64,000 nt of DNA from Psammoneis japonica (GCA_008632985.1 QPGO01000153.1:62001-126000); one strand, 5' to 3'; positions 11,796 through 62,700 are shown, numbered from the stretch's first letter. Program-made: numbers and translations. Notes: a model not told the origin generated them from the letters alone.

Positions 11796-11849
11796 GGGTA
11801 CCATAGCCTCTACTCTAGAGAGGGTAATAAACTAGGTACATGTTGCATG

Positions 11850-13808
11850 TTGAAGCCTTCACAGGTTCTTTCTTTCAGTTTGAACTTGTGCAATGATAAG
11901 CCCATGTCAGAACAACAGTTTGTGGCCACTTCAGCTTTTCGGGAGCTGTGGCAGCGGTAGATGGAACTGTTCTTTTTAACATGGCAACACAAAACAGCAG
12001 TGGCCAAAGGGGGGGGGGGGATCACAAATGTCTTTGGGAAAGAACAGGCAAAAGTCAAAAGCAGGGTCTCTTCCTTGTCTTCGCTCACAATGTAACTCCA
12101 CTCATTTCATTTGGTGAGACTCTTTGGCAATTCCACAAGATGCTCCTGTTGCCAACATTTTGAACAAGGCAATGTCAGCACCACATCAAGAAGCCCACTG
12201 GCTGAGCCTCAAACCTTTGTTGGTTTCTGCCATTCCAGTTGACAAAAGAGACACCCAAGTGCTGAGGTGTCCCACCCGTCGGCCAATTTTCAGCTGACAA
12301 TGTGGGAGGTGGAGCACAATTTTTGACATTTGAGGGTTGTGCTCAGATGCATCTGGTGCATGTCCAATGACAGAGAGCTGGCAACAAAAGCAGCCTTGGA
12401 ACAGATTTGCCAAGCAACCATTTGGTGCCTTGCCTTCACCCGGCCTTGTGACATTTTGTTGGCACTCCACTGCATTTGCTTGCACCACAGCACATGCACC
12501 TGTCAGCACTGTGCTCTGGCAACACATCAGCTGGCAGTCCTGCAGCAACTGGGGCTGGGGTTGTTGATGTTTTTGATGGCGGAAATGGCCCGCTTGGCTC
12601 AAAAGCTCATCTTCTCAGCACTGCACAAAAAGCATTGAGAGTGTTGGTTTTTGTGCAGAAATGTTCACAGCCCTTTGCATGTCAGAGGCCCTGCTGCACA
12701 AACAAATGTGCTGGGTGGTTTGCCCTGGGAGAGGAGGTGCCACACGAAAAGGCACTGTGAGGAGCCATGACGAAAATGGACAAACAGACTTCATGTGTTT
12801 TTGTTGCTGTGATGATGTACAGAGATGACAAAACAAGAGTGACAAAAAATTGGGCATGGTGCGGGGCTCTGTCACAAGTCATTCTGCTTGTGGGCAAAAA
12901 ACTGCACTTTCTTTGAGTCGCCAGAGCTCAAGTGCCCAGAGCTTTTGAAGTGTGTGCACAAGATGACACACACACTCCACTTCAAGAAAGGGGGGCTCAT
13001 GTGAGTGCTCCCTTCAGCAGCTCAAGCCCAAGAAATGCAAAGCTCATGCCAGGACCCAGAGCAAGTTTCAGTGCTTTTTGAAGGCAAGCCCGTCCCTTCT
13101 CCTGGACCCCCAGCACAATCTGCGCATGCAGAGCACACCCAAAAACAGCTTGTCCCAAGTGATGACAAAGAATTGCTGTCACACAAATTGTGCAGCTGAC
13201 TGGGATTGCCTGCCAAAAAATTTTACACTCCACCACTCTTCTTCAGCCAGTGGTTGGTTGGCTTGCACCCCTTTGAGAAGTGGTCTGCAAAAGGTGCTTC
13301 AAATGAGCCCAATTCTTTCTTCCCTTTAAAAAAGTCAGCTCCTTGACATCATCATTGTTTGGGTGCTGGTCTTGCCAGGCTTTCATCTTTTGTTGCATGT
13401 CACCAATGTGCACCTCGTCGCAATCAATGCATTTGACTGTGCACGACACACATCTTCCTGTCGATTCTCTCCACTGCCAGCAGAGCACACTCGAGAACAG
13501 AAGCCGCACTGCAGTGTGCGTGCGACAAAAGTGGCAGAGGACATGCCAATGTTGTGGTCACAAGGGATGCATTTTGGTCACAAGCCCTTCTACCTTTTCG
13601 TGACGTTGTTTTCACACTGCAATGCATGCACTGCAGCAGTCACATCATGCCGTGTGATGTCTTTTCCGATTTGACCACGTCTGTCTGGAGCAGTGCATCT
13701 CTCACGATGTGACCCCTTTGTCGGTCATTTTTCCCAAGTCTTTGCAACAAGCAACAAACCAAAAAATTGCCACGGAAGTCGGAAGTTTTAGTTTTTTCGT
13801 GCACTCAT
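11850..13808. repeat. TpA- and CpG-depleted degenerate sequence (probable element relic) with a GIY-YIG-like remnant on the - strand
   Basis: Almost no TA. CVSCTVKCIDCDEVHIGD (ORF 13243-13509 -) resembles a VYxxxCxxCxxxYIG motif if C/H are reverted to Y. Confidence 0.5.
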
Positions 13809-14084
13809 TGACAGGATTTGAACAGGATTTGGGTGCGCGCGAAATGTCGCGCGCTGTTTAGTTTACCGCGCACAGTTTTGTGTGCTTTAGTTCTGCGCGT
13901 TCGCGCGCGATGCAGTTTGCTTTCGAGCCACAAGGCTCACAAGAATGACAACAGCAGCCCGATTATACCGACTTACACGTCTTTCGGCTCCTGCAACGGT
14001 CTCTGAGCGGAGACTCATCTGCCATTTAGACAGCAGCAAGGAGTTGTTGTTTGAATTCTTGCCATTTGCCTTCAATTTCTGTCA
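13809..14084 (+). repeat. 5' LTR of Copia copy 1 (276 bp, TGACAG..CTGTCA)
   Basis: Direct repeat of 19614-19890; reverse complement of 54486-54761 and 61251-61526. Confidence 0.95.
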
Positions 14085-14809
14085 GATTGACAGTCTTGCT
14101 CATTGTCAACCCATTGAGCAACCGCCATCGTCGTCGTTGATTTACCGACGACGCCACTTCAATTCTGCGTGGACCTCCGCATGTGCTCTACACACATCGG
14201 CAAGTCTGCGCGCATTCAATGCCAGGCATCGGCAGGAATTTAACGTCACCGTCAAGTCTCCTCACCGCTGGACATCTGGATTGATCACACTGCCTTTGAT
14301 CGCTGAAGACATGCATCAACGGTCACATCCAAGTCTGTCCTTGATCCTCATCCCTTGACACACCCATTCATTGGTTAACGGTCAAGAACCCCACACATTC
14401 AAGGATCTTCGTCGCTGAAGACATGCACACATGTGCACATCTTCATGGCCAAGAACTTGTGCCCACTCTTCGGACTGCGGTTTTGCCACCACTCTGCGAG
14501 CACACCGAGTCCATTGCACCTGATCCACCCCGGACCACTGGTGCTCTGCAGTTCTGCCAGGTCCACGAGGATGACTGTGAGAGCAAGTGGCCGTGATTGC
14601 AGCCCACGTTGGGGTGAGGGTGTTTTTCCCGCGTTTGTTTGTTCGTCCACAGCGCCCAACGCCTGCATCAACTGGCCAGCCTGATCGGGAAATCCAACCG
14701 ACATAAAATGAGAACGGTTCAGGGGTCTTGTCCACCTCTGGTCAGCTTGCCTGCAGGGGTTTGCAACCTGCTGCTCCGCTCACAAGCAACCCAAAGTGCC
14801 GCTGGCTGC

Positions 14810-17800
14810 GGGTTCATCCTTCATTGGCAAGATCAGTTGCGCAAGTGCGAGGCACTCATCCCGGCCAGTGACCACTTCTCTGAAGGACAGAAGCGCATCA
14901 TGCTCGAGAATGCCGCACACCCTGTCGAGGAACTCCGTGCTGTCAAGAACCAAGCTGATCAGCATCGCACGCAGAGTGGCAAGAGCCTCACATGCGATCA
15001 ACACTGTGGCTTGCTCCTCTCCGCGGCGGCTCAATGCGACAGCACGTTTCAACCCAAGACGACACCTCGAGCTCCCCGACGTGCCACATGCGCACACGAT
15101 GTCCACTCCGACGAACCGTCCGACGATGTGTTCTGCAACATTGACAGCGACATTGACGTCCTTCAGGCTGATGCTGCCCACACCCGTGGTCCCAGCCTCA
15201 CCGGTGACCAATGGAAACGTCTCCCTCCTGCCCACCAACGGATTTGGGATTCGTTGCCCCATTCCTCCAAGGCGATCATCCTTGGGCATTCTCGTCCGCC
15301 TCCCCGCAACCCGCGAGCCAGCAACTGCCATGAGTTCATTGCGGCCAACCTTCACGACCAACGCCTTGGGAGTGACGGTGATGTCAACTTGTCCAACACG
15401 ACTCCTGCTGACTCTGGTGACTCCGCTCCAAATGTGGATGCCACTTCGGACAATCCCATCCTGGCGCACCTCACCAAGTGCAAGCCACTGCCACCCGGTG
15501 ATCTGCAACGTCTGTTGTCTCCTAATCAAGCCCCCAACGCTAGTCGACCGGGGCCATCCACCGCTCCCTCTACCCCGCCAGCTTCTGCCGATGACACAGA
15601 ACTTGGCAGCTGCACTTGCCGTCGCGTTGATGACCACAATGTCATTTGCTCTGCCTCTGCTCATCGCTCCACATGCACTGGTGCTCCAGTCGATCGTGGG
15701 GCCAACGGCGGCATTGCTGGCGACGACGTTCACGTCATTGCACGCACCTCTCACCAAGTCGACGTTCAGGGCATTGACGACCATCAATTGGTGGACATCC
15801 CCATTGTCACCGCTGGTGCCGTCATTGAGACCCAGCGTGGTCCCGTCATCGCCATCCTCCATCAGCACGCACACACGGGAAAGGGCAAGACCATCCATTC
15901 CTGTGGCCAGCTCGAATGGCACAAACAGGATGTCAACGATCGCTCTGTCAAGGTGCCCAACGGCTTGCAACGCATTGCCACTCCTGATGGCTGTGTCATC
16001 CCCATTGACATCAAGGGCGGCCTGCCTTGTGTTGCCATGTGACCTTACACTGACGCCGAATGGGACACCCTGCCCCATGTCATCCTCACCGGTGATGACA
16101 CATGGGATCCTTCCGTCCTCGATCACTCTGTCACTGACGATGACCAGTGGTGCAACGCGATCTCTGACCTGCAGGACGATCCCACTGCCAACCCATTTGA
16201 CGAATGCGGCAACTGCCGTCATCGTGTCATTGTCAACGAGACCATCATGTCCGCTTCCTTGTCTGCCGATCACGCGTCCGCCCTTGATGATCACCTCATT
16301 CCGAACGACGACATGTTCTGCAAGTGTCATCTACACGCGATTGACCCCAAGGACGATGACGTTCCGCCCCCGGAGCGCACTGTGCAGCCCAAGGACCCCC
16401 CCTTCGAGTCTCTTCGGCCTCACTTTGGCTTCCTCCCTGCCGATGCGGTCCGTCGTACTTTTGACTGCACCACGCAGCACGTCCGCATGCCCGCCGGTGC
16501 ACACCTTAGGAAGGCCCACAAATCACCCAACCCCACCCTTGGTGTGCACCGCCGCAACGAGCCTGTCGCCACTGACACCGTTCATGCCGACACCCCGGCC
16601 GTCGACTCTGGTTGCACCAGCGCCCAACTGTTTGTTGGCACCGAGTCTACCATCACTGACATCTGCGGCACCAAGACGGACAAAGAATTTGTCAACACAC
16701 TTGAGGATCAGATCCGGGAGCGTGGTGCCCCATCCAAACTCATTGGTGACCGTGCTCAAGTTGAGATCAGCAACAAGGTGCTCGGGATCCTGCGAGCCCT
16801 CTTCATCTCCAGCTGGCAAAGTGAGCCTCACCAGCAACACCAAAACTTTGCCGAGCGTTGACACCAGACCGTGAAGCACATGGCGAACACTGTCATGGAT
16901 CGTTTTGGTTCGCCCGCCCACACATGGCTGCTGGCGCTCATGCATGTGTGCTTCATGCTCAACCACACAGCGTCCTTGCATCTCCACTGGCGCACGCCCC
17001 TCGAGACTCTCGCTGGCTCCACCCCGGACATCAGCCCATTGCTTCGCTTTCACTGGTGGGAACCCGTGTGCTTCCACCTCGATGACTCCGATTGGCCGCC
17101 CGAATCCCGTGAGTTGCGTGGACGCTTTGTTGGCATTGCTGAGCACGTCGGCCACCAGATGACCTTCAAGATTCTTTCTGACGAGACTCAGAAGATCCTC
17201 TGCCGGTCCAACGTACGCTCCGCTGCCACCGATCCTGCCGTTCGAAACCTGCGTCTTGATCCTCCTGATGGGGAGCCACCTGAACCCATCATCAAATCTC
17301 GCCATGACGACAACCCCGTCGATTCTCCTGATGGGGAGATCAGGACACCCAAGATGCCAGTTTTCGATCCGCAAGACATCATCGGACGCACCTTCCTCAT
17401 GCAGCCACAAGAGGACGGACAACGCCACAGAGCTCGCATCGTCAAGGCCGTCAAAGACCACGAATGGAAAGTGAATGGCAATTTCGAGCTCACCAAGTTC
17501 GTCTGCTCTGTCAACAACGACGAATACGAGGAAGTCCTTGCCTGCAATGACATCATGAATCACATTGAGCAAGAAGACGAAGACACCACTGTTTGGAAAT
17601 TTCGATGCATCATGTCACATGAAGGACCTCTGAAGCCTCATGACCCAACCTGGAAAGGCTCAAGCTACAACATCATGCTTGAATGGGAAAGTGGGGAGAT
17701 CACGTCCGAGCCTCTTGCCATCATCGCCAAGGACGACCCCGTCACCTGCGCCATCTGTGCACGAGAGAACGGACTTCTCGACACTGATGGCTGGAAGCGG

Positions 17801-19613
17801 TTCCGCACCATCACGAGGCGCCAAAAGAAGCTATTTCGCATGGCCAACCAAGCCAAGCTTCGCTCCTTCCGCACTGCACCTCGCTGCAAGTGCGGATGCG
17901 AAGTTCCCCGGAACCACAAACACGCCATGTCACTAGACGAACGCAACGGCAACCGCAAATGGGGAGACGCAACTAATCTCGAGATGGACCAACTCGAGGA
18001 ATGCGAAGTCTTCCATGACTGCGGGCCCTTCGAGTCTTCCACTCCTCCTGCGGGACACAAGAAGATCCGAGTGCACCTGGTGCACGACGTGAAACACGAC
18101 GGTCGCCACAAGGCACGACTCGTAGCCGATGGGCACCTCACGGACGCACCTGTCGACAGTGTCTGCTCCGGAGCAGTCTCCCTCCGTGGCCTTCGGCTGA
18201 TGATTTTCCTGGCCGAACTCAACGAGTTGGAGACATGGGCCACCGACATTGGCAATGCCCACCTTGAAGCCACCACCAAGGAGAAGCTCTACATTGCAGC
18301 CGGACCCGAATTTGGCAAACTCGAAGGACACATCCTTGTCATCCACAAGGCCCTGTGTGGACTGCGCAGCTCTGGTCTCCGCTGGCACGAGCGCTTCGCC
18401 GACTGCCTGCGAGCTGAAGGATTCTTCCCCTGCCGCGCCGAACCCGACATTTGGATGCGCAGGAACAGCGACCACTGTGAATGCATTGCCGTTTGTGTGG
18501 ATGACCTCGCCATTGCTGTGAAGGACCCTCAATCTTTCGTCGACACTCTCACGGAAAAGCACAAGTTCAAGCTCAAGGGTGCGGGACCCATTGAGTTCCA
18601 TCTGGGTTGCGACTTTTCCCGGGATCCCAACGGCACCTTGTGCCTGTCTCCGCGCAAGTACATCGAGCGCATGGTCGACAGCTGCACCCGACTGTTTGGG
18701 GAGAAACCTGCCACCAATGCCCTGTCACCTCTGGAGAAGGGTGACCACCCCGAACTGGACACTTCCGAACTGCTGGGGCCCGATGGCATTCACAAGTTCC
18801 AGTCTCTTGTTGGTTCACTCCAATGGGCAGTGTCCCTTGGTCGAATTGACATTGCCACGGCCGTCATGTCACTCTCTAGCTTCCAAGCTGCGCCCCGTCA
18901 AGGCCACTTGGATCGTGCCAAACGCGTCTGTGGGTGCCTCTCCAAGATGCGACACGGCGCTCTCCGCGTTCGCACGGAAGAGCCCGACTGTTCGGATCTC
19001 CCTGCTCCGGCCTGTGAATGGATGCATTCCGTGTGCGGCGAAGCAGAAGAGATGATCCCGAAGGACGCTCCACCGCCCCTTGGCAAGTTCGTCACTGCCA
19101 CCCACTGCGTCGATGCAAACTTGCACCATTGCATGCTCACCGGACGCTCTGTCATGGGAATGCTCCACTTCCTCAACAAATTCCCGGCTGATTGGTTCTC
19201 TAAGAAGCAAGCCACTGTGGAGACTGCGACCTGCGGGTCTGAATTTGTTGCTGCAAGGACTTGTGTCGAGCAGATTGTTGACCTGCGCATCACCCTGCGC
19301 TGCCTTGGCATCCCGATCCGCAATGTCAGTCACATGTTCGGTGACAACAAGTCGGTTGTAGACAGTGCCACCATCCCGCACTCCAAGTTACACAAGCGAC
19401 ACACCGCACTGTCATTCCACCGTGTGTGTGAGGCAATTGCCTCTGGTTGCCTTGAGCTCCACTTCATCGAAGGCTCCCGCAACCCTGCTGACATTCTCAG
19501 CAAGCATTGGGGTCACTCCCAAATCTGGGACCTTTTCCGCCCCCCAATGTTCTGGAACTTCATTCCATCCGAAGTCGAATCTGTTTCTGTGGCTCCTCAA
19601 GCAAACTGGGGAG
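14810..19613 (+). pseudogene. Copia gag-pol remnant
   Basis: ORFs 14639-16042, 16247-16861 and 16871-19915 are in one frame, split by TGA stops where copy 2 has CGA (Arg); only ~4 Tyr in the 1014-aa segment. Confidence 0.9.
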
Positions 19614-19890
19614 TGACAGGATTTGAACAGGATTTGGGTGCGGCGCGAAATGTCGCGTGCTGTTTAGTTTGCCGCACACAGTTTTGTGTGCTTCAGTTCC
19701 GCGCGTTCGCGCGCGATGTGGTTTGCTTTCGAGCCACAAGGCTCACAAGAACAATGACAGCAGCCCGATTGTGCCAACTTGCACGTCTTTCGGCTCCTGT
19801 GATGGTCTCTGAGCGGAGACTCATCTGCCATTTAGACAGCAGCAAGGAGTTGTTGTTTGAACTCTTGCCACTTGCCTTCAATTTCTGTCG
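19614..19890 (+). repeat. 3' LTR of Copia copy 1 (277 bp, ends CTGTCG)
   Basis: Preceded by the PPT-like tract; differs from the 5' LTR mostly at TA and CG sites. Confidence 0.95.
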
Positions 19891-20024
19891 CTTGTCCTCG
19901 TTCCTGTCAACTTGACACAAGCGCATCAAATCACAACAGAGGATCTAAAGTTTGTCCACTTTGCAACACCTGAGTTGTGCTCTTTGTCTGATCTGCGTGT
20001 CTGATTGAATCAGTTAAACGGAGG

Positions 20025-21484
20025 ATGGCAACGGATGACTTCGTTTGGCCTTCGGGCTTCTTGTTCAAGAATGCACTGCTGGCTTCGACTTCCACATCGA
20101 TGTGCAATGGGCCTTCAGCCACTTCCATGTCGAATTGTGGCCAGGCGAGTCTTCTACGAAACGTGCAGATCATGTCCAATGGGAGGAGTCTCATGTCCAA
20201 TTCATTGCATCGAGTGGCCGCTGGCAGTGCTCTCGGCAGCGCCGCCATTCTTGGAGCGGCACCGAGCGGAATGAGCGGACCTGGCATTCTTTCACCCGTC
20301 TCCCAGCCTGCTTTGTCTACGTCAGCGCCAAGCCGAATGAGCAGACCTGACACCTCACCCATCTCTGAGCCTTCTATGTCTTCGTCGACACTGAAGAAAA
20401 TCACCCCATCGGCGCAGCTCGTATGCGATGAGACTGAATTGGCTAGAGCGCTGCAGATTGGTGATGACCAAGCCCGACTACCGCTTAAAAAGAGGGCCAA
20501 AATTGGTTGCATGAATTACATTGCGGCAGACAATAAGAAGGAAGACGAAACACTTGATGAAGATGTCAAGCTTATGACGATGCAGTACCAATCACGAGTT
20601 GAAAAGGACCGGTTAGGAGTAGGAGCGTCATCAGCGGTTAAGAAGTCACCGAAGCAGGACCGGTCACGAGTAGCGTCTACTGCAGTTGAAAACCGACCAA
20701 AGGAGGACCGATCACAAGAAGCGCCATCGACTGTAGTCAAAAAGTCGTCGGCTGTTCGGAAAAATGTGGACAGGAAGAAAGAAAGGTCTCCCAACCCTTC
20801 TACTGAGAAGCATTGGAATAAAATGTTTCTGAAACTTGTGAGTCCGCAATGTATTGCGTGTCGCATTTCATCCTCCTTTTAAACTCTCTTACTCATTGCT
20901 GCCTTATGTTCTTTGTCTCCACACAGCTCGCTTACAAAACTGTTCATGGCAATTGCAATGTCCCCAATAACTACAAGGACGACCCGCGCTTAGCAAAATG
21001 GGTCGGGTATCAAAGAAAGAGAAACAGGCTTCTCCCGGCCGATCGCAAGGAAAAGCTAGAAGAACTTGGCTTTGCTTTTTGCCTCAAAAAGCATGATTCG
21101 TGGGAAGTCATGTACAAACAGCTGGTCGAGTACAAACGCAAGCATGGCACATGCATGGTGCCACAACTCTACCGCGAGAACAAGAAACTAGGAAAATGGG
21201 TTGCAATCCAAAGATTCAACAAGAAATCACTCACGAAGGAGCGTTTTGAACTACTTAATGAGTTGGAATTTGTGTGGAATGCAAACAAATTCATATGGAA
21301 GACTAACTACGAAGCTTTGGTCGCGTTCCAAGCAAAGCATGGCCACTGCCGTGTTCCGTCTGACGACGAAGAATACAAGCAGCTATCGCATTGGGTGCGT
21401 AGACAACAACGAAACAAAGCTCTTCTCACTACACGTTGTGTGAAACTGCTTGAGGAAATTGGTCTTAAAATAATGCAGCCGTAG
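20025..21484 (+). CDS. Helicase-associated (HA) repeat protein, three HA domains
   Basis: Intron 20838-20926; WNKMFLKL|LAYKTVHGNCNVP..LAKWVGYQR, WEVMYKQLVEYKRKHGTCMVP..LGKWVAIQR, WKTNYEALVAFQAKHGHCRVP..LSHWVRRQ. Confidence 0.9.
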
Positions 21485-25199: not shown

Positions 25200-27567
25200 A
25201 GCAATATAAAGTTCCCATGGTTGATTTAATTGAGACAAATCATTTGAAATTAATGTGCTACACACGGCAGGAGCACACATCATTACATGCACGACACCAA
25301 AGATGGCGGGTTGAAGCCGTTCACTTGCGCTCAGGTCACCCTCCTCTGTTGGAACTGAGGAGGCACCAGAGACAACTGCTCTTCTTTGGCGCAATGAGCA
25401 TCAAGCCTGTCAGATCCAAGCACATTCTAAATTTTTTTGTGCCCCATGGCATCAACTCCCAGAGCACCAACAAGGGTCCGTCGTCCCGTCTTTCTCGGAG
25501 ATGGCTGCCATTCTGTGCTCATGGGGTTTGTTGGAAGGGACCGTCACACTGTGGCCAAGGTGGCTTCAGCCAGGAACCTTGTGCAGAGAATCACATCCCC
25601 AACAGTCACCCACTCCCTCCTCCTCTGTTGAGGAGCTGGGCTGCCCCAAATTGAGGCTGGAGCTCCTCAAAGCAATGAACCCCAGGGAGTTCACCCAGCT
25701 GCGGGGAGACCCACCACAGGTGATGAGACCGCACAGCAGATTTGGAAGATTGCCCATGCTCTTGCCTCATGCACCCCAATCTGCTCCTTTTGCTTGGCAC
25801 TGTCAGGAAAAAGCCCAAGAGCAGGGCCATCTCACACTCTCATTTTTTCATCTTGAGGGAGACCCTCACTTCCTGTGGGCAGAGCTGAACAGGGTTGGGT
25901 CTTTGCCATGCCACTGTGCGGCATTAAAAACAAACCATGATGGCAAAGCCTCCGGGGCCAGACCCAATCAGGAGGAGTGGAGGCCCCTGCTTTAGAGGAG
26001 CCCATCTCCCGGTGGGAAAATTGACATGAGAACAACCCCTCCAAACTCAACACATGGGAAAAGACCTTGCTTGGTCAGAACAGGAGCAACATGCTCACAA
26101 ACATTTTTGTTCATTGCTGGAAGTTGTTCCAATGTTTCCTCTTGAGCTTCTTCTCAATGGCATCTGTTTTGACAAAATGTCAGATCTTCTCAAAACAGCA
26201 CACACCAGCTGGCATGTCACCCGCTCTTGTTCAGTGGCTGTTCAACTTGCACCAACTGTCTCTCCCTTGCCAACACAGTGAGCTGCCATGCAGGTGGTCT
26301 GCGTTCCAAGTCAATGGCAACGACAACACCCAACACATGTGACTCAATCTTTCACACCCACTTGGCTTTTGCAGAATGTTGCTGCTTCAGTCAACTCTGA
26401 TGCTTCTTTTTTGGCATTCTTTCTGCTTGCACACACATGGCCTCACATGTTTCACAAACAGAGCTGCCAGTCACAACATGAAGGTTTCTGTGTGACAGCA
26501 ACACAATTGTCCAATTCAAGTCAGCCAAACTCTCACACTCACTCATCATTTGCAGAACTTCACTCAATCAACTTGACATGCAAAGCACATTTTTTGGCAT
26601 TTTTTCTGTGTGCACGCACAACTCACATGTTTCACAATGCTGTGAGAGATGTGCTGGGACAGCTGCTTCCCAAAAGTTCTGCTTGTCTGTGCATTTTTGG
26701 GGGGTGCCAGTGCAGTTTCCAGGTGTGAGAAAAGATGATTCTGTCCAGCATTGAATGGCCAAATTTGAGTGAAAAACCCACTCACACACTGTTGTTTGAC
26801 AGGCTGCTCTAGCACAAATGCTGGACATGATTTTTTGGACAGCAGCTGTCTAAAAACATGCTCCAAACAGACCCTCTCCCAATTTGCTTCTACTGAGAGG
26901 GGGGTGCGCTGCCTGGCAGCATGGCCCTGCTCATGTTTCTTCATGTGCCAGTGAGACAATTGTCAAATGACAGCATCAATCCAGCATGGCACCAAAAATG
27001 AACCCCTCCCCCCAACAATGCAACTTCATGTTTGAGCCAGTGCTTAAAACATTGACATGGGTGCAGCCAAGTGTGAGGCTTTGCAGCCTGGTGAGGACAG
27101 AGGGAAGGAACAATTTGTGAGGCAGAGTGCAGTGCACAGGTGCAAGGATTTTGTGCAGAAGCAGTGTGTCCAGCCACAGTGCTGATGGCTGCAGAAGGCA
27201 AAGGAAAAGAAACCAGAAGGGCTGCATGAGGTGTTGGCACACCAGCTCTCACAGAGAGCTGCACCTGCATGCTGCAGCTTGAAGAAGCAGTTTGAAGGAA
27301 TTAACAAGGTGCCAAAAGGGAAAGTTGTGAGAGCTGTGAGACTGTTTTGGGCACCAAAAGCAAGTGCAGGGGTTGTGAGATGCTCTGCAGCAAAACCCAG
27401 CAAGAGCCCCAGCCAGCCAGCAAAAGATCCCCGCATGTTGTCCATGACCAAGTCGCACTCCACAAAGTGATTTCAGCACCACTTTGGCAGAATTGCATCA
27501 GTGCTTGTTGCAAAATCTCCAAAATTAGCACACCCAAAGCATGTCATCAGAGCTTGCACTGAAAATG

Positions 27568-27594
27568 TCTCTCTCTCTCTCTCTCTCTCTCTCT
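27568..27594. repeat. (CT)n microsatellite
   Basis: About 13 TC units. Confidence 0.9.
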
Positions 27595-33356: not shown

Positions 33357-33369
33357 CACGCGTGTCCCA

Positions 33370-47246: not shown

Positions 47247-47475
47247 AGTTGAATGGTTGAGATGCATTGTTGGTAGTTGGAAAAGTAGACGAAGTTAAAG
47301 TTATGAACTTATATATTACCGCAAAGTCTTTGTCCCTTTGCAATCTATCGCATGTTTTTCTTCTTGTGGCTGCAAATCTTGAAGTTTCCGCACTGTCTTT
47401 TTCAGTCTTATTGACACCACACCGTGTTATAATTCCCACGCCTCATCTTGGATGGACTGCCCCAATCGAGAGAAA

Positions 47476-51412: not shown

Positions 51413-53731
51413 AGTTGAATGGTTGAGATGCATTGTTGGTAGTTGGAAAAGTAGACGAAGTTAAAGTTATGAACTTATATATTACCGCAAAGTCTTTGTC
51501 CCTTTGCAATCTATCGCATGTTTTTCTTCTTGTGGCTGCAAATCTTGAAGTTTCCGCACTGTCTTTTTGCAGTCTTATTGACACCACACCGTGTTATAAT
51601 TCCCACGCCTCATCTTGGATGGACTGCCCCAATCGAGAGAAACCATGTCATCAGCAGACAATGAAGGCACTAGAAACACCATCTGTCACCCCCAAATGGT
51701 TTTCCAGAGTTTGCACTGTCATTGCAAACATCCGAGCTTTACGCGGCACAAACTGCAAAGGGAATTGCACATGAGCCAGCAAACATGCTTCATGGACCAC
51801 AGCCAAAAGACATTGACAAACACAATGGCCAAGTTGGCTCTGATTCAGAGTGCATTCAACTGAGGGTGCAAGAGGCAGAAAAAGTGGCCAGACCCAGCAT
51901 CGGGATGTGCTGGCAATGGCAGTGGCTGTTTTGCAGCATCCAAAACACTTGCTTGCATCAACAAAAATGATCAAGGCAACGCAACGGGGAAGGTGTTCAA
52001 AAGCAAAGCACAACCCACACCACAGCAAAGAAGCTTTCAATGGAAATGACTGCTTTCAGCAGATGGAAACTTGCTTGCTTGCATTTGATCATCTGAGAAC
52101 AGCTGCATCCAAGGCCAGCAGCACACCAGTGAACATGGGGGGCACCACAGGTCATGAACAAGCCCGGAGTGCTCTCACCAACATGTTGGCCATTGCGTCT
52201 TGGCAGCGACAGCTCTGATGTCACAAGCACCTTGGCTTTGATGGAGGGTGCACACATCACCCAAGTTGTCCTTCCAACAAATGTTCCAGTGGTTGCTCTG
52301 GACATCAACAGAGAGACCACAAGTGTGAGATGTTTTGCCATGTGGTGCCTGTTTTGACAGTTTGGGGGATGTCTCCAGCCAGCTGTGCTCGCTAAAAAAA
52401 GTCTGCCTGTCAGTGTGTTTGGGGGTTTTGCCAGTGCATTTTTATGTGCATGGACCAGGCCTGCAGGGAGCGTTGACCACTTGTCTTTGTTGATGTTGTG
52501 TGGTGCCTGCACAGTGTTGCTGTTGCACGCATGTGCGGGCAGTGGCACCTGGTGTGCGCAGAAGCACCAAGCACATGGAGCCCCACCGCCGGGGCTGCAC
52601 TGCAGCGCATGGCACAGCAGCAGGGTGGCGGGGCCACCGGCGCCACAGATGACCATTGTGCTTGATGGATTGTGCCATTTTGGAGGCTGCAGTGAGGTGC
52701 ACAGACACTCTTTTTTCAATTTGCCGCCAAAATGGCGCATCACACAAACTCACTTGTCGCTCGATGTGTTTTTTCCAGTGTGGCTGTTTCATGTGCAGTT
52801 CATGACAAATTGCATTTGTTCAAAGCTGAGCATGTTTTTCAACTTGCCACACTGGCAACCCCAATTTTGCAGCAGTTTTGAGCTCTTTCAAAAACAGCTC
52901 CATGCACACGTTGCAGGGAATTTGTCCATTTTTTGGGAAGTTCCCATGAGCTGTGGCGTCCTCAATGGTCATTCTGCAAATCTGAGCAACACCTTTGCAC
53001 CAGACAGCCCATGTCATTTCAAAATCCAAAGGACACACTTTCAAATGGTGACAGACACCCCACACCCTGGCTGCCCGACCGACCGACTGACCCACACGAA
53101 AAAGTTTGCAACTGCCAGCCGCTGAGTGGTCAATGAAGATGTCGACTCCATCCTGCATTCACCAAAACCCCCAAATGCACAGATTGGCAGACTCTTCCAG
53201 TGCAAATTCCACACAAGATTCTTCAGCCAGCAGCTGGCTGGAGACTTCCCCCAAGTTGAAGGAGCCTTCTTGGACAAACCAAAAACACGGGACGAAGAAG
53301 TGTGTGTGTGCTTGACTGCAGCTCTGCCATTGCTGAGCCAGAAGTTGAGTGCATCCTCATCAGGGCCAGGGCATTGGCACAGGGTGTTGAAAGCATCATC
53401 ACCAGGTCAGGTGCAGAATCACCAACAAGAAAAAGACCAAGCAACTCCAGCTTGTCTGCCAGCTCTTGCAACTTTTGTGACAGGTTGTGTTGCTTCTATT
53501 TTGACTGATGTTCGTTTTGAAGGCCGGTTGTCAAGATTCAAGTTGTCGAACAAAATGGAGCAAACGAAGCAAAAAATCCAAAATCAACACCTTTCGCTCA
53601 TGGAACAACAACAAACGAACTACGGTTGTTCTGTCTTGAAACAAAAGCGACACTCACGACACTCTCTCCGTTCTCCATGTCACTGAATTTCGCTCGCATG
53701 TGCATTTCATGTCATGTGACCAAACAACAAC

Positions 53732-56700
53732 ATGACGAATTTGAGCACACTTGGCACCATTTTACTGGCATTGGGAAGTGTGTTTTTGTTGGCGGGAATC
53801 ATCACCACGGCGGTTTCCGTGGCCAATCAAAACAACAGCAACAATGATGAGGACAAGAAGAAGGATGTGTCTAAACCATCAGGTGGAACAAATGATGGCG
53901 AGACACGCTTGGAGCTCATTCCCGCCATGGCGGTGTCTCCGTTGGACCAAGACCGTCACGATTCGATTCGTGCCAATGTGGTGGCACTGGACATTTTGAC
54001 GCCAGAAGTGCTCGACACCACGGGCACACCGGCCAATCTTGCCTTGCGTTGGTTGACGGATTGCGACAAGGCCAAGCTCGCGGTCGATCACTTGGCACTC
54101 AGTCAGCGTTTTGCTCTGGCGACTCTCTTCTTTTCGACCCACACCAAGGTGAACAATGGCGATGCTGGCATTGTCATTGTGCAAAAGGCAGACGAAACGT
54201 GGAGCAACATGGAACATTGGATGACGGAAAAGGGCATTTGTGTGTGGCATGGTGTGTCGTGTCCACCCATTGTTGTGGGTGGTCGAGAGGTGATGACCTG
54301 CAACGACAATTCGGGCATGCAAGAGTTGAATTTGAACAACAACAATGTCCGCGGCAACATTCCCATGGAGGTTCGGGCCATGGAGAATTTGAAATTGTTG
54401 GATTTGGGAGGAAACAGTTTGCATGGCAGCATTCCGACGCATGTGGGACATTTGCGGGCCTTGAGTGAGTTGAGACAAAGGGCGATGACAGAAATTGAAG
54501 GCAAATGGCAAGAATTCAAACAATGACTCCTTGCTGCTGTCTAAATGGCAGATGAGTCTCCGCTCAGAGACCGTTGCAGGAGCCGAAAGGCGTGCAAGTC
54601 GGTGTGATCGGGCTACTGTCATCATTCTTGTGAGCCTTGTGGCTCGAAAGCAAACTGCATCACGCGTGAACGCGCGGAGCTAAAGCACACAAAACTGTGC
54701 GCGGCAAACTAAACAGCGCGCGACACTTCGCGCGCACCCAAATCCTGTTCTAATCCTGTCACTCCCCAGTTTGCTTGAGGAGTCACAGAAACAGATCCGA
54801 CTTCGGATGGAATGAAGTTCCAGAACATGAGGGGGCAGAGAAGGTCCCAGATTTGGGAGCAACCCCAATGCTTGCTGAGAATGTCAGCAGGGTTGCGGGA
54901 GCCTTCGATGAAGTGGAACTCAAGGCAACCAGAGGCAATTGCCTCACGCACATGGTGGAACGACAGTGCGGTGTGTCGTTTGTGTAACTTGGAGTGCGGG
55001 ATGGTGGCACTGTCTACAACCGACTTGTTGTCACCGAACATGTAGCTGACATTGCAGATCGGGATGCCAAGGTGGCGCAGGGTGATGCGCAGGTCAACAA
55101 TCTGCTCGACACAAGTCCTTGCGGCAACAAATTCAGACCCGCAGGTCGCAGTCTCCATGGTGGCTTGCTTCTTAGAGAACCAATCAGCCGGGAATTTGTT
55201 GAGGAAGTGGAGCATTCCCATGACAGAGCGTCCGGTGAGCATGCAATGGCACAAGTTTGCATCGACGCAGTGGGTGGCAGTGACGAACTTGCCAAGGGGC
55301 GGTGGAACGTCCTTCGGGATCATCTCTTCTGCCTCGCCGCACACGGAATGCATCCATTAACAGGCCGGAGCAGGGAGATCCGAATGGTCGGGCTCTTCCG
55401 TACGAACGCGGAGAGCACCGTGTCGCATCTTGGAGAGGCACCCACAGACGCGTTTGGCATGATCCAAGTGGCCTTGACGGGGCGCAGCTCGGAAGCTAGA
55501 GAGTGACATGACGGCCGTGGCAATGTCAATTCGACCAAGGGACACTGCCCATTGGAGTGAACCAACAAGAGACTGGAACTTGTGAATGCCATCGGGCTCC
55601 AGCAGCTTGGAAGTGTCCAGTTCGGGGTGGTCACCCTTCTCCAGAGGTGGCAGGGCATTGGTGGCAGGTTTCTCCCCAAACAGTCGGGTGCAACTGTCGA
55701 CCATGCGCTTGATGCACTTGCGCGGAGACAGGCACAAGGTGTCGTCAGGATCCCGGGAAAAGTCGCAACCCAGATGGAACTCAATGGGTCCCGCACCCTT
55801 GAGCTTGAACTTGTGCTTTTCCGTGAGAGCATCGACAAAAGATTGAGGGTCCTTCATGGCAATGGCGAGGTCATCCACATAAACGGCAATGCATTCACAG
55901 TGGTCGCCATTCCTGCGCATCCAAATGTCGGGTTCGGCGCGGCAGGGGAAGAAGCCTTCAGCTCGCAGGCAGTCGGCGAAGCGCTCGTGCCAGCAGAGAC
56001 CGGAGCTGCGCAGTCCATGCAGGGCCTTGTGGATGACAAGGATGTGTCCTTCAAGTTTGCCAAATTCGGGTCCGGCTGCAATGTAGAGCTTCTCTTTGGT
56101 GGTGGCTTCAAGGCAGGCATTGCCAATGTTGGTGGCCCATGTCTCCAACTCGTTGAGTTCGGCCAGGAAAATCATCAGCCGAAGGCCACGGAGGGAGACT
56201 GCTCCGGAGTGGACACCATCGACAGGTACGTCCGTGAGGTGCCCATCGGCTACAAGTCGTGCCTTGTGGCGACCGTCGTGTTTCACGTCGCACACTGGGT
56301 GCACTCGGATCTTCTTGTGTCCTGCAGGAGGAGTGGAAGACTCGAAGGGCCCGCAGTCATGGAAGACTTCATATTCGTCGAGTTGGTCCATCTCGAGATT
56401 AGTTGCGTCTCCCCATTTGCGGTTGCCGTTGCGCTCGTCTAGTGACATGGTGTGTTTGCAGTTCCGGGGAACTTCGCATCCACACTTGCAGCGAGGTGCA
56501 GTGCGGAAGGAGCGAAGCTTGGCTTGGTTGGCCATGCAAAATGGCTTCTTTTGGCGCCTCGCGATGGCGCGGAACCGCTTCCAGCCATCCGTGTCGAGAA
56601 GTCCGTTCTCTCGTGCATAGATGGCGCAGGTGACGGGGTCGTCCTTGGCGATGATGGCAAGAGGCTCGGACGTGATCTCCCCAATTTCCCATTCAAGCAT

Positions 56701-59700
56701 GATGTTGTAGCTCGAGCCTTTCCAGGTTGGGTCGTGAGGCTTCAGAGGTCCTTCGTGTGACACGATGCGTCGAAATTTCCAAACAGCAGTGTCTTCGTCT
56801 TCTTGCTCAATGTGATTCACGATGTCGTTGCAGGCAAGGACTTCCTCGCATTCGTCGTTGTTGACGGAGCAGACGAACTTAGTGAGCTCGGGATTGCTGT
56901 TCACTTTCCATTCGTGGTTTTCGACGGCCTTGACAGTGCGAGCTCTGTGGCGTTGTCCGTCCTCTTGTGGCTGCATGAGGAAGGTGCGTCCGATGATGTC
57001 TTGCGGATCGAAAACTGGCATCTTGGGTGTCCTGATCTCCCCATCAGGAGAATCGACGGGGTTGTCGTCATGGCGAGATTTGATGATGGGTTCAGGTGGC
57101 TCCCCATCAGGAGGATCAAGACGCAGGTTTCGAACGGCAGGATCGGTGGCAGCGGAGCGTACGTTGGACCGGCAGAGGATCTTCTGAGTCTCGTCAGAGA
57201 GAATCTTGAAGGTCATCTGGTGGCCGACGTGCTCAGCAATGCCAACGAAGCGTCCACGCAACTCACGGGATTTGGACGGCCAATCGGAGTCATCAAGGTG
57301 GAAGTGCACGGGTTCCCACCAGTGAAAGCGAAGCAATGGGCTGATGTCCGGGGTGGAGCCAGTGAGAGTCTCGAGGGGCGTGCGCCAGTGGAGACGTGGG
57401 GATGCTGCATGGTTGAGCATGAAGCACACATGCATGAGCGCCAGCAGCCATGTGTGGGCGGGTGAACCAAAACGATCCATGACAGTGTTCGCCATGCACT
57501 TCACGGTCTGGTGTCGACGCTCGGCAAAGTTTTGGTGTTGCTGGTGAGGCTCACTTTGCCAGCTGGAGATGAAGAGGGCTCGTAGGATCCCGAGCACTTT
57601 GTTGCTGATCTCAACTTGAGCACGGTCGCCAATGAGTTTGGGTGGGGCACCACGCTCACGGATTTGATCCTCGAGTGTGTTGACAAACTCTTTGTCCGTC
57701 TTGGTGCCGCAGACGTCAGTGACGGTAGACTCGGTGCCAACAAACAGTTGGGCACTGGTGCAACCAGAGTCGATGGCCGGGGTGTTGGCACAAACGGTGT
57801 CAGTGGCGACAGGCTCGTTGCGGCGGTGCACATTAAGGGCGGGGTTGGGTGATTTGCAGGCCTTCCTAAGGTGTGTGCCGGCGGGCATGCGGGCGCACTG
57901 CGTGGTGCAGTCAAAAGTACGACGGACCGCATCGGTGGGCAGGAAGCCAAAGCAAGGCCGAAGAGACTCGAAGGGGGGGTCCTTGGGCTGTGCAGTGCGC
58001 TCCGGGGGCGGAACGTTGTCGTCCTTGGGGTCAATCGCGTGCAGATGACACTCGTAGAACACGTCGTCATTCGGAATGAGGTGATCATCGAGGGCGGACG
58101 CGTGATCGGCAGACAAGGAAGTGGACATGATGGTCTCGTTGACAATGACACGATGACGGCAGTTGCCGCATTCGTCAAATGGGTTGGCAGTGGGATCGTC
58201 CTGCAGGTCAGAGATCGCATCGCACCACTGGTCGTCGTCAGTGACAGAGTGATCGAGGACGGAAGGATCCCATGTGTCATCACCGGTGAGGATGACATGG
58301 GGCAGGGTGTCCCATTCGGCGTCAGTGTGAGGTCGCATGGCAACACAAGGCAGGCCGGCCTTGATGTCAATGGGGATGACACAGCCATCAGGAGTGGCAA
58401 TGCGTTGCAAGCCATTGGGCACCTTGACAGAGCAATTGTTGACATCCTGTTTGTGCCATTCGAGCTGGCCACAGGAATGGATGGTCTTGCCCTTGCCCGT
58501 GCATGCGCACTGATGGAGGATGGCGATGACGGGACCACGCTGGGTCTCAATGACGGCACCAGCGGTGACAATGGGGATGTCCACCAATTGATGGTCGTCA
58601 ATGCCCTGAATGTCGACTTGGCGAGAGGTGCGTGCAATGACGCGAACGTCGTCACCAGCAATGCCGCCGTTGGCCCCACGATCGACTGGAGCACCAGTGC
58701 GTGTGGAGCGATGAGCAGAGGCAGAGCAAATGACATTGTGGTTGTTGGCACGACGGTGAGTGCGGCCGTTGAGTTCTGTGTCATCGGTGAGAGCTGGCGG
58801 AGCAGTGGGAGCGGCGGATGGCCCCGGTCGACTGGCGTTGGGGGCTTGGTTAGGAGACAACAGGCGTTGCAGATCACCGGGTGGCAGTGGCTTGCGCTTG
58901 GTGAGGTGCGCCAGGATGGGATCATCCGAAGTGGCGTCCACATTTGGAGCGGGTTCACCAGAGTCAGCAGGAGTCATGTTGGACAAGTTGACATCACCGT
59001 CACTCCCAAGGCGTTGGTCGTGAAGGTTGGCCGTAATGGACTCATGGCAGTTGCTGGCTCGCGGGTTGCTGGGAGGCGGATGAGAATGCTCAAGGATGAT
59101 CGCCTTGGAGGAATGGGGCAACGAATCCCAAATCCGTTGGTGGTCGGGAGGGAGACGTTTCCATTGGTCACCGGCGAGGCTGGGACCACGGGTGCAGGCA
59201 GCATTGGCCTGAAGGACGTCATGGCACGTCGGGGAGCTCGAGGTGTCGTCTTGGGTTGAAACGTGCTGTCGCATTGAGCTGCCGCGGAGAGGAGCAAGCC
59301 ACAGCATTGATTGCATGTGAGGCTCTTGCCACTCTGCGTGCGATGCTGATCAGCTTGGTTCTTGACAGCACGGAGTTCCTCGACAGGGTGTGCGGCATTC
59401 TCGAGCATGACGCGCTTCTGTCCTTCAGAGAAGTGGTCACTGGCCGGGATGAGTGCCTCGTGCTTGCGCAACTGATCTTGCCAATGAAGGATGAACCCGT
59501 GGGTCGGACCCTTCCAAGTGCCATCACCAAGACGTGCGGTGGTGAGGTGCGTTGGCAAGGTGGAGGACTCGACAGATGCGCGGGTGGAAGCGAGCGCACA
59601 CTCAGACAGGGCGCGGCAGACGGTCTGGGCATCAGAAGACCCCACATTTTCGCGGATGAGAGCCTTGCCCTTGTCGGTGAGAAGGATGCGTTTGAAGATG

Positions 59701-62700
59701 GCGAACATGCACTTTTGCTGTTCAGCAAAGAGCAGTTTGTCTTTGGGGCTGGTCGGTTTGTACGACGAGTCTAGAGTGCACTCGACGTCTTGGGCACGGG
59801 CTTGTGCCACAAGTGAGGTGTGCCAAGTGTGCCACTGCTTGTCGGATTTGAGAGCCGTGAAAGCGGTGGGATCACGCTTGATGCCTCGCTTGAAGTCCCG
59901 TGCCGGGTCGCGTGCCTTGGTCGGGTTGGTGACATGCGGAGGTGCGAGGGGTGAGCTGCCGATGGACACAGAAGACATGTGGTCGGGGCTGAGGCGGCAG
60001 GCAAGGAACTCGTCATGCGTGAACAACGAGGAGTCATTGGCAACGTCAAGACCTTTGTGTGCTTTGACAATGTACAGACCAACTGGAGCTGCTAACATGT
60101 TCTTATAACCACGGGGCAAAGGGATCACATTGGTGCCGTTGTCGCACTCAAGCGAGTCGATTTGGGACGGTATGAACGTGAATAGTTCTTGATGCGAGTC
60201 CGCGCCGTCTTGGGCCAAAGCCAAACGAAGAGGGCTCCCAGCACCTTGGGCAAGCACGGTTCCAACAACGTGCTCGAAACCATCGGTTTGTTGCTGACGA
60301 GTGAGAACCATGGCAGACAAAATTGGTGTCAGGACAAGCAATTCTTGTTGGGAAGCGAAGGTGGACTTGAAGCTTGGGTGAGAATGGACTTGACTTGAAA
60401 CGGACTTGACTTGAAATCTTGAACTGCCTTAAAATCAGAAGTCGCCGGGTTTTGCTGTCCCGTTCGTTGTCAAGTGCTAAACTTCCCATCCGGTCCGCAG
60501 AGTTGTGCCGGCACGTCCGAACCCGCAGCTGGTGGCGCTTTGGGTTGCTTACGAGCGGAGCAGCGGGTTGCAAACCCCTGCAGGCAAGCTGACCAGAGGT
60601 GGACAAGACCCCTGAACCGTTCTCACTTTGTGTCGGTTGGATTTCCCGATCAGGCTGGCCAGTTGATGCAGGCGTCAGGCGCTGTGGACGAATGAACAAA
60701 CGCGGGAAAGCACCCTCGCCCCAACGTAGACTGCAATCACGGCTGCTTGCTCTCACAGTCGTCCTCGTGGACCTGGCAGAACTGTGGAGCACCAGCAGTC
60801 CGGGGCGGATCAGATGCAATGGACTCGGTGTGCTTGTAGAGTGGCAGCAAAACCGCAGTCCGAAGAGTGGGTGCAGGTTCTTGGCCGTGAAGACATGTGT
60901 GTGTGCACATGTCCTCAGCGACAAAGATCCTTGAACATGCAGGGTTCTTGACCGTTGACCGATGAACAGGCATGTCAAGGGATGAGGATCAAGGATGGAC
61001 TTGGACATGACCGTTGAATGCATGTCTTCAGCGATCAAAGGCAGTGTGATCAATCCAGACATCCAGCGGCAAGGAGACTTGATGGTGACGTTAACTTCCT
61101 GCCGATGCCCTGGCATTGAATGCGCGCAGACTTGCCGATGCATGCAGAACATGCACGGAGGTCCACGCAGAATTGAGGTGGCGTTGTTGGCAAATCAACG
61201 ACGACGATGGCGGTTGCTCAATGGGTTGACAATGAGCAAGACTGTTGATCTGACAGAAATTGAAGGCAAATGGCAAGAATTCAAACAACAACTCCTTGCT
61301 GCTGTCTAAATGGCAGATGAGTCTCCGCTCAGAGACCGTTGCAGGAGCCGAAAGACGTGTGAGTCGGCACAATCGGGCTGCTGTCATCATTCTTGTGAGC
61401 CTTGTGGCTCGAAAGCAAACTGCATCACGCGCGAACGCGCGGAACTAAAGCACACAAAACTGTGCGCGGCAAACTAAACAGCGCGCGATGCTTCGCGTGC
61501 ACCTAAATCCTGTTCAAATCCTGTCAGGCGAGTTGGACTGGGTGCACTTTTGAGACTGTTTTGCTCACTGTTTTTGTTCTTTTTCCATTTTTCAGCCAAC
61601 TTGCACTTTGTGCAAAACAAACTCACGGGCTTTGCACCCTCGGAATTGGGCATCTTGACCGATCTGGAAAATTTTCACGTTAGAAACAACCTCTTGGAAG
61701 GCCAGGTTCCGACGGAGATTTCCTTGCTCAAGAAGCTGGAGTCGTTTGGATTGGATCAGAATCATCTTTCGGGGGCACTTCCGGATGTGTCCAAGTTTGA
61801 TAAATTGAGTAAGTGTTCAAAGCGAGTGCTGCTGTGGGCGCGCTGAATTAATCTCACGTATTGGGCGCAACCTTCGCGGTGAAGGGGGGGGGAGGGGGGG
61901 AATCGTAAAATCACGTGTTATTCTGTAAAACACGTGCTTCGTCGTGTAAAACACACATTTTGGCTCATTATCCTATATCTTACGTAGGATCCTACGTAGC
62001 AGGCTTTTTCGAGCATTCGTCGGTCTGTCGTCGGTCTGTCGTCGGTCTGTCGTCGGTCATTTTTGATGGCAAACTCAAACCAAAAGGAACCCGGAAGTGA
62101 ACATTCACTGTCAGTGCGCGCGATTTGAATGCGCAAACACCAAAAACTGCTCGACTCGACTGTCGAAAGCACCATGACGACCCAAGCCGCTGCTTGTTAC
62201 TAGGGCGTTTTACAAAACAGGGGTGTTTTACACATTTTGACAATCTGGGGTGAAAGTGGGGTCAGGGGCACCGCCCAATACGTGAGATTAATTCAGTGCG
62301 CCCTATCGGAAAGCTTCATTTTACATGATACTTATGCATGCGCTTTTGTCACACTTTTACAGCGGCTCTCTATTTGGATAATAATGCCTTTAGCGGTTCC
62401 ATTCCGTTTGAATGGTCCAGTCTTGTGTCTCTCAAGGATTTGCGCTTGAACCGAAACTACTTGACGGGAGAGTTGCCATCGACTCTGTTCAAGATGCCCC
62501 GTTTGGAACTCATGTATTTGGGAAACAATATCTTTACGGGAACTGTCCCAGATTTGTTTTCTGGAACACCCCGCTTGCTGGAGGTCCAGCTGTACAAGAA
62601 TGAGTTTACGGGCTCCGTGCCGGCTTCGTTGGGATCGTTGAGTCTGTTGCGTCTCTTGTATTTGGACACAAACGACTTTTCGGGAGAGCTCCCGGATACC

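Follow-up and report, generated by a model that had tools for sequence, protein, structure and literature searches.

TpA-poor blocks in transposon-rich DNA of Psammoneis japonica point to a regional A:T to G:C mutator

A 64,000-nt stretch of the Psammoneis japonica genome (QPGO01000153.1:62001-126000; the whole stretch is called the window here) contains five blocks that have lost almost all of the dinucleotide TpA and are enriched in TpG and CpA, while the genes between the blocks keep a normal TpA content. The blocks contain two Copia-type long terminal repeat (LTR) retrotransposons, a high-copy DNA-transposon-like element, and decayed DNA of unclassified origin. There is good support for a mutator that acts regionally on silent mobile DNA and changes A:T to G:C specifically at TpA, and we consider it probable (about 0.8) that a DNA-level mutational process converts TpA to TpG or CpA in place on silenced transposon domains. 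Of the two A:T pairs in the dinucleotide, one would undergo a transition to G:C in each event. The conversion takes place after integration and hits the LTR retrotransposons, the DNA transposon, and the unclassified decayed blocks alike. It runs about 300 bp into adjoining host sequence before it stops, and spares expressed or intact genes, even where these form tandem repeats of 98% identity. The initial annotation of the window knew of no description of the signature, whereas a 2026 bioRxiv preprint on the chlorarachniophyte alga Bigelowiella natans describes it (10.64898/2026.01.13.699255).

Dinucleotides were counted in 1-kb and 250-bp bins along the window and are expressed as observed/expected ratios (O/E). 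The binned counts place the TpA-poor blocks at ~11.9-20.0, 25.45-40.7, 42.55-44.4, 47.65-49.2, and 51.8-61.8 kb, in agreement with the five domains recognized in the initial annotation. The TpA O/E lies between 0.02 and 0.15 in the blocks and between 0.51 and 0.59 in the intervening gene regions (TA frequencies of 0.001-0.007 and 0.036-0.042, respectively). In absolute numbers, 165 TA are left in 36,555 bp of block sequence, where ~1,460 would be expected, against 997 in 24,955 bp of normal sequence. TG and CA reach O/E values of 1.4-1.9 in the blocks, and their summed frequency is 0.18-0.23 there versus 0.14-0.15 in the normal parts; AA, TT, and AT are not depleted (AA O/E 0.9-1.5). The block edges are sharp to ~250 bp: at 40.7 kb, successive 250-bp bins hold 0, 0, 0, and then, at 40751, 12 TA. 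The CpG O/E is 0.13-0.34 in the older blocks versus a near-normal 0.86-0.87 in the two Copia copies. Since the Copia copies are TA-poor with CpG near normal, the loss of TA is no by-product of CpG loss. Former TA sites are fixed as TG or CA, never as CG. Both the binned counts and the element annotation confirm the earlier view that the depletion is confined to transposon-rich blocks next to intact genes. According to Pfam, the genes between the blocks encode leucine-rich repeat (LRR) proteins, a BTB protein, a helicase-associated-domain protein, and an HNH protein.

Three polarised comparisons carry the argument, namely the LTR pairs of the two Copia elements, the Copia proteins against their relatives, and a host flank against its paralogues. 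Copia copy 1 is found at 13809..19889 on the plus strand (LTRs 13809-14084 and 19614-19889, found by self-BLAST; RVT_2 E-value 5e-24) and copy 2 at 54486..61526 on the minus strand (LTRs 54486-54761 and 61251-61526; RVT_2 E-value 1.5e-22). Both have 276-bp LTRs with TG..CA ends, a polypurine tract, and an RVT_2 polymerase domain. Copy 1 lacks ~1 kb that is present in copy 2, and copy 2 is bordered by the 5-bp target-site duplication GGCGA (54481-54485 and 61527-61531). The TA O/E is 0.12 in copy 1 and 0.15 in copy 2, at CpG values of 0.86 and 0.87, respectively. Under the assumption that the two LTRs of an element are identical at integration, all differences within a pair arose later. In the two elements, 9 and 7 of these differences are TA-derived, 5 and 1 are CpG-derived, and 2 and 4 are of other origin. 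The LTR pairs thus differ mostly at TA-derived sites, which indicates that the process acts after integration.

Copy 1 and copy 2 differ from each other by 352 mismatches, 336 of them transitions. Among the mismatches are 74 TG/CA disagreements (148 bases), together with 103 of the CG-versus-TG/CA and 32 of the TA-versus-TG/CA type; 350 CG and 20 TA are common to both copies. One such disagreement had been put forward in the initial annotation as a sign of ancestral TA, where copy 1 reads GATTGACAG at 14085 and copy 2 reads GATCAACAG (reverse complement at 61242). The example is indeed present, and TA ancestry is shown by the polarised comparisons, while the example taken alone would fit a CG ancestor too; we estimate that ~4 of the 74 disagreements could descend from CpG. 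Decay rates were calculated from the mismatch counts of the two copies and from the per-base counts of the host flank given below. The estimated ancestral TA number is ~190, or 3.2% of dinucleotides versus 3.6-4.2% in normal genes, of which ~81% have decayed per copy. For CpG, an estimated ancestral number of ~460 has decayed by ~13% per copy, and other bases have changed by ~0.7% per copy. The per-base rate at TpA is therefore ~110 times that of ordinary bases and ~12 times that of CpG, with similar values from the host flank. Neighbouring sites made the same strand choice in 31 of 73 cases (permutation p 0.90), and strand use is about even. The TA sites are resolved independently of one another, without strand runs.

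At the protein level, both copies were compared with 20 intact relatives (55-61% identity over the full alignment), and a column was regarded as conserved for tyrosine when at least 80% of the relatives carry this residue. Copy 1 has 29 such columns, with 3 Tyr, 17 Cys, 6 His, and 3 Phe. The corresponding 31 columns of copy 2 show 5 Tyr, 18 Cys, 5 His, and 3 Phe, so that the earlier claim of conserved tyrosines turned into cysteine or histidine applies to both elements. All residue classes except tyrosine are kept at 74-100% in both copies. Taken over the two copies, tyrosine codons (TAY, where Y is a pyrimidine) became Cys in 35 and His in 11 cases (p 0.0005). The motif YVDD, present in all six relatives inspected, had been described as changed to CVDD; this holds for copy 1, but copy 2 still reads YVDD. 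The tyrosine content is 0.4% here versus 2.9-5.0% in all 120 relatives listed, which are 43-69% identical (119 of them 57-69%).

Related Copia elements elsewhere do not share the depletion. Among 80 related metagenome Copia loci the TA O/E ranges from 0.35 to 1.02, with a median of 0.73, and each of the 11 loci tested (the eight with the lowest TA and three close relatives) keeps at least 20 of 24 covered conserved tyrosines. Because these loci are TA-normal and those tested keep most of their conserved tyrosines, the loss of TA is no property of this Copia lineage. Together with the converted host flanks described below, they bear out the original proposal of a mutational process instead of an element property. 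One metagenome locus, L049, combines the lowest TA O/E of the 80 (0.35) with a TG O/E of 1.51 and a CA O/E of 1.32, and keeps 20 of 24 conserved tyrosines. The locus could represent a weakly affected copy from a different organism, or simply normal variation. Over 14639-19915 and 55357-61152 of the window, TAA and TAG are gone and TGA is the only stop left. The decayed blocks therefore contain many long overlapping open reading frames (ORFs) on both strands, an example being a 1,319-codon ORF in a dead Copia copy.

The clearest view of the process outside mobile DNA comes from a tandem array of a 4,163-bp unit with LRR genes, present in three copies. The first two units, u1 (45566-49728) and u2 (49729-53891), are 98% identical over 4,163 bp and TA-normal in their gene parts. 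The third, u3, is split: it starts at 53892-54485 and resumes at 61527 (to 63262), and Copia copy 2 sits inside it. About 472 bp (61832-62303) present in u3 are missing from u1 and u2. The LRR genes of u1 (44600..47400, plus strand; LRR Pfam matches) serve as a control, being repeated yet TA-normal (TA O/E 0.53, CpG 1.06). Two other parts of the units are depleted, at 47650..49200 in u1 and at 51800..53400 in u2, both with a TA O/E of 0.02. These segments are 98% identical and their TG/CA choices are common except at two sites. Since they share nearly all of these choices, their depletion preceded the duplication. The end of u2 (53400..53891) is converted, while the same sequence is TA-normal in u1: between 53442 and 53854, ten TA of u1 are TG or CA in u2, with no change in the reverse direction. 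The TA sites of these last ~480 bp of u2, which adjoin the block, were lost after the duplication. The process has thus been active over a long time.

In u3, conversion extends to the host sequence flanking copy 2 on the left and on the right. The 594-bp 5' fragment of the LRR-gene unit to the left (53892..54485, plus strand), cut by copy 2, has no TA left, and all 11 TA sites common to u1 and u2 are now TG (6) or CA (5). To the right, conversion covers ~290 bp (61527..61820, plus strand), where five of seven shared TA are converted, the last at 61814. Counted over both sides of the insertion inside the block, 16 of 18 shared TA are lost and none of the 18 shows the reverse pattern; outside the block (62304-63257), 37 of 41 shared TA are kept. 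Conversion stops within ~300 bp of the element border. Per base, the changes in the u3 part of the block amount to 13/31 for TpA, 7/96 for CpG, 3/387 for other A/T, and 2/303 for other G/C, and the 13 changes at TpA are without exception A>G or T>C. We should note that the u3 alignment past 63.26 kb was excluded, since it shares no homology with the depleted segments of u1 and u2; for this reason, 29 'TG/CA>CG' and 14 'TG/CA>TA' rows do not enter the comparison.

These counts agree with the polarity first suggested, from TA to TG or CA and thus opposite to that of fungal repeat-induced point mutation (RIP), as well as with the suggested specificity for TpA. They do not agree with the label 'repeat-targeted', given that the 98%-identical units keep TA in their gene parts and that host sequence beside the Copia element is converted. 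The target would be a chromatin or silencing state and not duplication as such, and the CpG decay in the same blocks suggests cytosine methylation. Within the otherwise TA-normal gene part of u1, three TA of u2 appear as TG within 50 bp (46227, 46260, and 46276). They may mark a minor leak of the process into DNA beyond the blocks.

The conversion also has a preferred sequence context. Among the 88 polarised events, the changed A is the one preceding a pyrimidine in 43 of the 62 informative cases (p 0.003), and in 22 of 30 when the LTR events are left out. Surviving TA in the blocks fit this picture: 45% of them lie in YTAR (R being a purine), that is CTAA/TTAG, TTAA, or CTAG, versus 15% in normal DNA (p 1e-16). 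At three TTTAG sites of the LTRs, TA is kept in 11 of 12 instances while nearby TA are converted. The preferred substrate is the A of 5'-TAY-3'.

This DNA is contained in three runs of one sample only, none of them listed as RNA; the sample is possibly the source of the assembly itself, and the library type is not on record. The short-read-type contigs of run X1 were built from exact 31-letter words, with a single-copy word depth of ~60. Two of them, of 3,978 and 3,284 nt, match the depleted sequence at 25.3-31.3 kb with one or two differences each, at a depth of 64-66. The X1 depth over TA-normal genes is 59-64, the same as over the depleted block, and no half-depth alternative letters are listed in the X1 contigs over this block. 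Between 20.0 and 31.3 kb, the contigs and the window show four differences in ~11,300 positions, none at a TA, TG, or CA site. These four differences indicate that the contigs are not a mere copy of the window. The read check called for earlier thus reproduces the depleted sequence at single-copy depth, and a sequencing artefact is very unlikely, the reads coming from no independent isolate.

The high-copy DNA-transposon-like element occupies 31300..38700 (minus strand; TA O/E 0.08) and encodes a Plavaka/KDZ-type transposase ORF at 34402-36297, also on the minus strand. Over 31.3-38.7 kb the word depth is 4,600-20,000 versus ~60 for single-copy DNA, which corresponds to ~75-330 copies. A deletion derivative skipping 33631-36539 (2.9 kb) is abundant (depth 889), and no convincing terminal inverted repeats were found for the element. 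The transposase ORF of 631 residues has 958 relatives, and nine of the ten relatives scanned match Pfam Plavaka; the Pfam scan of 22 long ORFs of 25.3-40.8 kb itself returned one weak Plavaka match and nothing else. Tyrosine makes up 3 of the 631 residues (0.5%) versus 3.1% in 22 relatives. At the eight columns where at least half of the relatives carry tyrosine, two Tyr are kept, with four replaced by Cys and one by His.

The copies of this element appear to share their depletion. A 20-kb stretch examined in the reads has 128 variable places, and 36 of the best-supported 40 fall in the element. Among these best 40 of 128, most are CG in other copies versus CA or TG here; TG/CA swaps account for three of them and TA variants for none, with the limit that contigs drop rare variants. 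If the copies had lost TA independently, ~200 sites split about half TG and half CA would be expected. Given the few swaps and the lack of TA variants in this set, the family seems to have multiplied after most TA was gone; it thus seems to have spread while already TA-poor, even though the transposase appears to be damaged. Such a spread may have come about by mobilisation in trans, by segmental amplification, or by escape via target exhaustion.

The remaining parts of the blocks are less well characterized. The sequence 5' of Copia copy 1 (11900..13808) is depleted of both TA (O/E 0.06) and CpG (0.28), is unclassified in origin, and shows no Pfam-bearing ORF. The 3' flank of copy 1 (19890..20250) has a low TA content, with two TA in 20001-20250 versus 6-15 per 250 bp beyond; this is a weak case, as there is no paralogue to polarise it. 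The most heavily decayed block (25450..31300; TA O/E 0.04, CpG 0.13) has lost nearly all TA and CpG, is single-copy by exact-word depth, and has no Pfam match. Depleted DNA is also found at 38700..40700 (TA O/E 0.05), with a sharp right edge, and at 42550..44400 (TA O/E 0.05, CpG 0.18). No domain match was obtained in these remaining blocks.

The window carries long uninterrupted ORFs, and for two window genes the database contains no near-identical protein, the best matches reaching 52% and 70% identity. Viral genes were not found in the window, and the tRNA and Rfam scans gave no match. The helicase-associated-domain gene (20025-21484) has an 89-nt GT..AG intron at 20838-20926, which was seen in a spliced contig of run X2. 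This run is recorded as 'DNA?' yet looks like RNA, as the spliced contig suggests. It covers 3 of the 30 bins of the examined stretch, and its coverage says nothing on silence elsewhere in the window.

The nearest known counterpart is the TpA hypermutation of B. natans. In mutation-accumulation lines of this organism, two integrated viral regions accounted for 231 of the 302 nuclear point mutations, and 230 of these 231 were A>G or T>C, all 230 on TpA (10.64898/2026.01.13.699255). The rate was ~6e-7 per site per generation (~1e-7 to 1e-6), in some lines only, and the genome contains 124 TpA-depleted, CpA+TpG-enriched clusters, with TpA-poor genes being enriched for reverse-transcriptase and DDE-transposase domains (10.64898/2026.01.13.699255). 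As described in the main text of the preprint, the two cases share the change of TpA to TpG or CpA only, its restriction to discrete regions of foreign or mobile DNA, and the TpA-poor, CpA+TpG-rich clusters left behind. The rate excess is roughly comparable in magnitude, at ~1000-fold in B. natans and ~100-fold per base here. The targets in the window are Copia elements, a Plavaka-like transposon, and decayed blocks, whereas those reported for B. natans are viral inserts. The preprint documents de novo mutations in some lines and partly depleted viral inserts (rho 0.45), while in the window the end state only is seen, at 0.02-0.15. A single family here comprises some hundred TA-poor copies or more, while 124 clusters are reported for the entire B. 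natans genome. Spread into host flanks, LTR elements, the sparing of repeated genes, near saturation, the TAY preference, and the relation to CpG decay are seen in the window and are not part of the preprint's main text. As far as sequence goes, the window matches every feature of the B. natans process, which is known here from its end state. By analogy, the two would be the same kind of process, and the window probably shows the signature in a second lineage. Apart from the preprint, whose supplements may hold context data, our literature search returned no description of TpA-specific hypermutation.

Other mutational systems resemble the one proposed here in part. Fungal RIP changes C to T mostly at CpA, creates TpA, and is triggered by duplication. 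As in the window, its transitions saturate transposons, leave a dinucleotide signature, and can leak into neighbouring sequence. Papers on RIP include PMC7296669 and PMC3318451. In contrast to RIP, TpA is destroyed here and not created, and 98%-identical 4.2-kb repeats are spared in their gene parts. The enzymes ADAR and APOBEC likewise give deaminase-type transitions with a neighbour preference and disable mobile elements. They act on RNA or reverse-transcription intermediates, and their changes are strand-biased, clustered, and limited to the element. Here, by contrast, the changes follow integration, affect both strands without runs, and include host flanks and a DNA transposon. Methyl-CpG deamination has left its own mark in the same blocks, in the low CpG O/E of the old blocks (0.13-0.34) and in the 103 CG-versus-TG/CA mismatches between the Copia copies. 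It cannot remove TpA, and in the DNA that both affect, the TpA process outpaces it ~12-fold.

The most likely chemistry, in our tentative judgement and at somewhat less than even odds, is adenine deamination by a TadA/ADAT2-like enzyme. In such a scheme, a TadA/ADAT2-like polynucleotide deaminase would turn adenine into hypoxanthine in DNA. TadA, ADAT2-ADAT3, and the adenine base editors derived from them target an A preceded by U or T, as in the window. The natural tRNA target of TadA and ADAT2 is A34, which is preceded by U33, and the own site of TadA, U-A-C-G, would fit the TAC/TAY preference found here. Natural activity of such deaminases on chromosomal DNA is known only from cases cited in the preprint. 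An ADAT2-like adenine deaminase is also what the preprint by Mettrop et al. proposes for B. natans (10.64898/2026.01.13.699255).

The same regional process might instead act on T, in that a T of TpA modified or oxidised in silent chromatin mispairs with G or is misrepaired and becomes C. TA is self-complementary, so that T>C is A>G on the other strand and the patterns can equally be read as an R-T-A preference. Moreover, modified thymines are concentrated at TpA in some protists. Nothing in the window speaks for this chemistry directly, and the sole published proposal, as far as the preprint goes, is adenine deamination (10.64898/2026.01.13.699255); we regard a change on T as a rather unlikely alternative.

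It is improbable that the elements are TA-poor by origin or by selection, either through a foreign composition or through avoidance of a TA-reading nuclease. The high-copy element would suit such an origin, as it shares its TG/CA choices with most copies (three swaps and no TA variants in the best 40 of 128). This leaves the converted host gene fragments and the divergence of LTR pairs at TA unaccounted for, as well as the destruction of catalytic and conserved tyrosines and the TA-normal state of the 80 related Copia loci.

A low probability is likewise given to error-prone repair by a DNA polymerase eta (Pol-eta)-like enzyme in methylated or silent DNA, a mechanism that the initial annotation had considered. 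A change of A to G at an A after T is part of the Pol-eta WA signature (W being A or T), and the CpG decay in the blocks would supply lesions. However, WA includes AA, and neither AA nor TT is depleted (O/E 1.0-1.5). The per-base counts of u3, with 3/387 for A/T outside TpA versus 13/31 for TpA, point the same way. Furthermore, TA is nearly gone in the Copia copies at a CpG O/E of 0.86-0.87, and the TA loss thus does not follow CpG lesions.

If transposon RNA underwent ADAR-like A-to-I editing and was then reverse-transcribed and integrated, this would account for the A to G change and for the preference for T on the 5' side. According to the Discussion of the preprint, which also notes the likeness, ADAR prefers a 5' U (10.64898/2026.01.13.699255). 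We consider this highly improbable: the LTR pairs of one element differ mainly at TA sites, host sequence is converted on both sides of copy 2, the DNA transposon and unclassified DNA are hit as well, and both strands are equally affected without runs.

An artefact in which a modified base at heterochromatic TpA is misread during sequencing or assembly is given an equally small chance. It draws on the single sample, possibly the assembly source, with no library type on record. Strand-specific misreading would give half-depth alternative letters, of which none are listed in X1, and the exact-word contigs of this run reproduce 25.3-31.3 kb at a depth of 59-66. In addition, converted sites are invariably TG or CA, with none fixed as CG, and a number of TA persist in defined contexts. 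The least credible reading of all is GC-biased gene conversion among repeats. It fits the net AT to GC change in repeated DNA, but the change is confined to TpA, repeated genes are spared, and depletion is strongest in blocks whose word depth marks them as single-copy.

Several points weigh against a deaminase-driven process in silenced domains as we propose it. The link to silencing is drawn solely from the CpG decay and from the kind of sequences that are hit. The equal use of strands and the absence of runs lend no support to a processive single-strand deaminase, and the preference for C or T on the 3' side does not hold for all known ADAT substrates. The multiplication of the high-copy element after its depletion is left unexplained by a simple course of insertion followed by decay. 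Finally, the reads come from one sample only, which is possibly the source of the assembly.

To our knowledge, a genome defence or regional mutator that targets the A:T pairs of a single dinucleotide was not known before 2026, and the one report since then concerns a single alga. The process in P. japonica is best filed as a member, probably from a second lineage, of the kind of system first described in that year. More doubtful, and in our opinion unlikely in its entirety, is a larger picture in which a chromatin-guided, TpA-directed DNA-editing defence exists in a second, unrelated protist, where it would saturate silent transposon DNA and the first few hundred flanking bases. In that picture, the TAY motif would point to a TadA/ADAT-like enzyme, and at least one DNA-transposon family would have multiplied to about a hundred or more copies after its TA was exhausted.

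The loss of TpA has consequences for the analysis of such genomes. Tyrosine codons and the stops TAA and TAG vanish, so that decayed elements show long false ORFs, escape domain searches, and mislead gene finders. Dating by LTR divergence will give ages that are far too old if TA sites are counted. Any mechanism must explain why the conversion takes place after integration, follows domain borders and not duplication, spreads over ~300 bp, runs ~10 times faster than methyl-CpG decay, and prefers TAY. If the spread of the TA-poor family is read correctly, target exhaustion may make an element invisible to the TpA system. A second organism carrying the signature would mean that the process is no curiosity of one strain.

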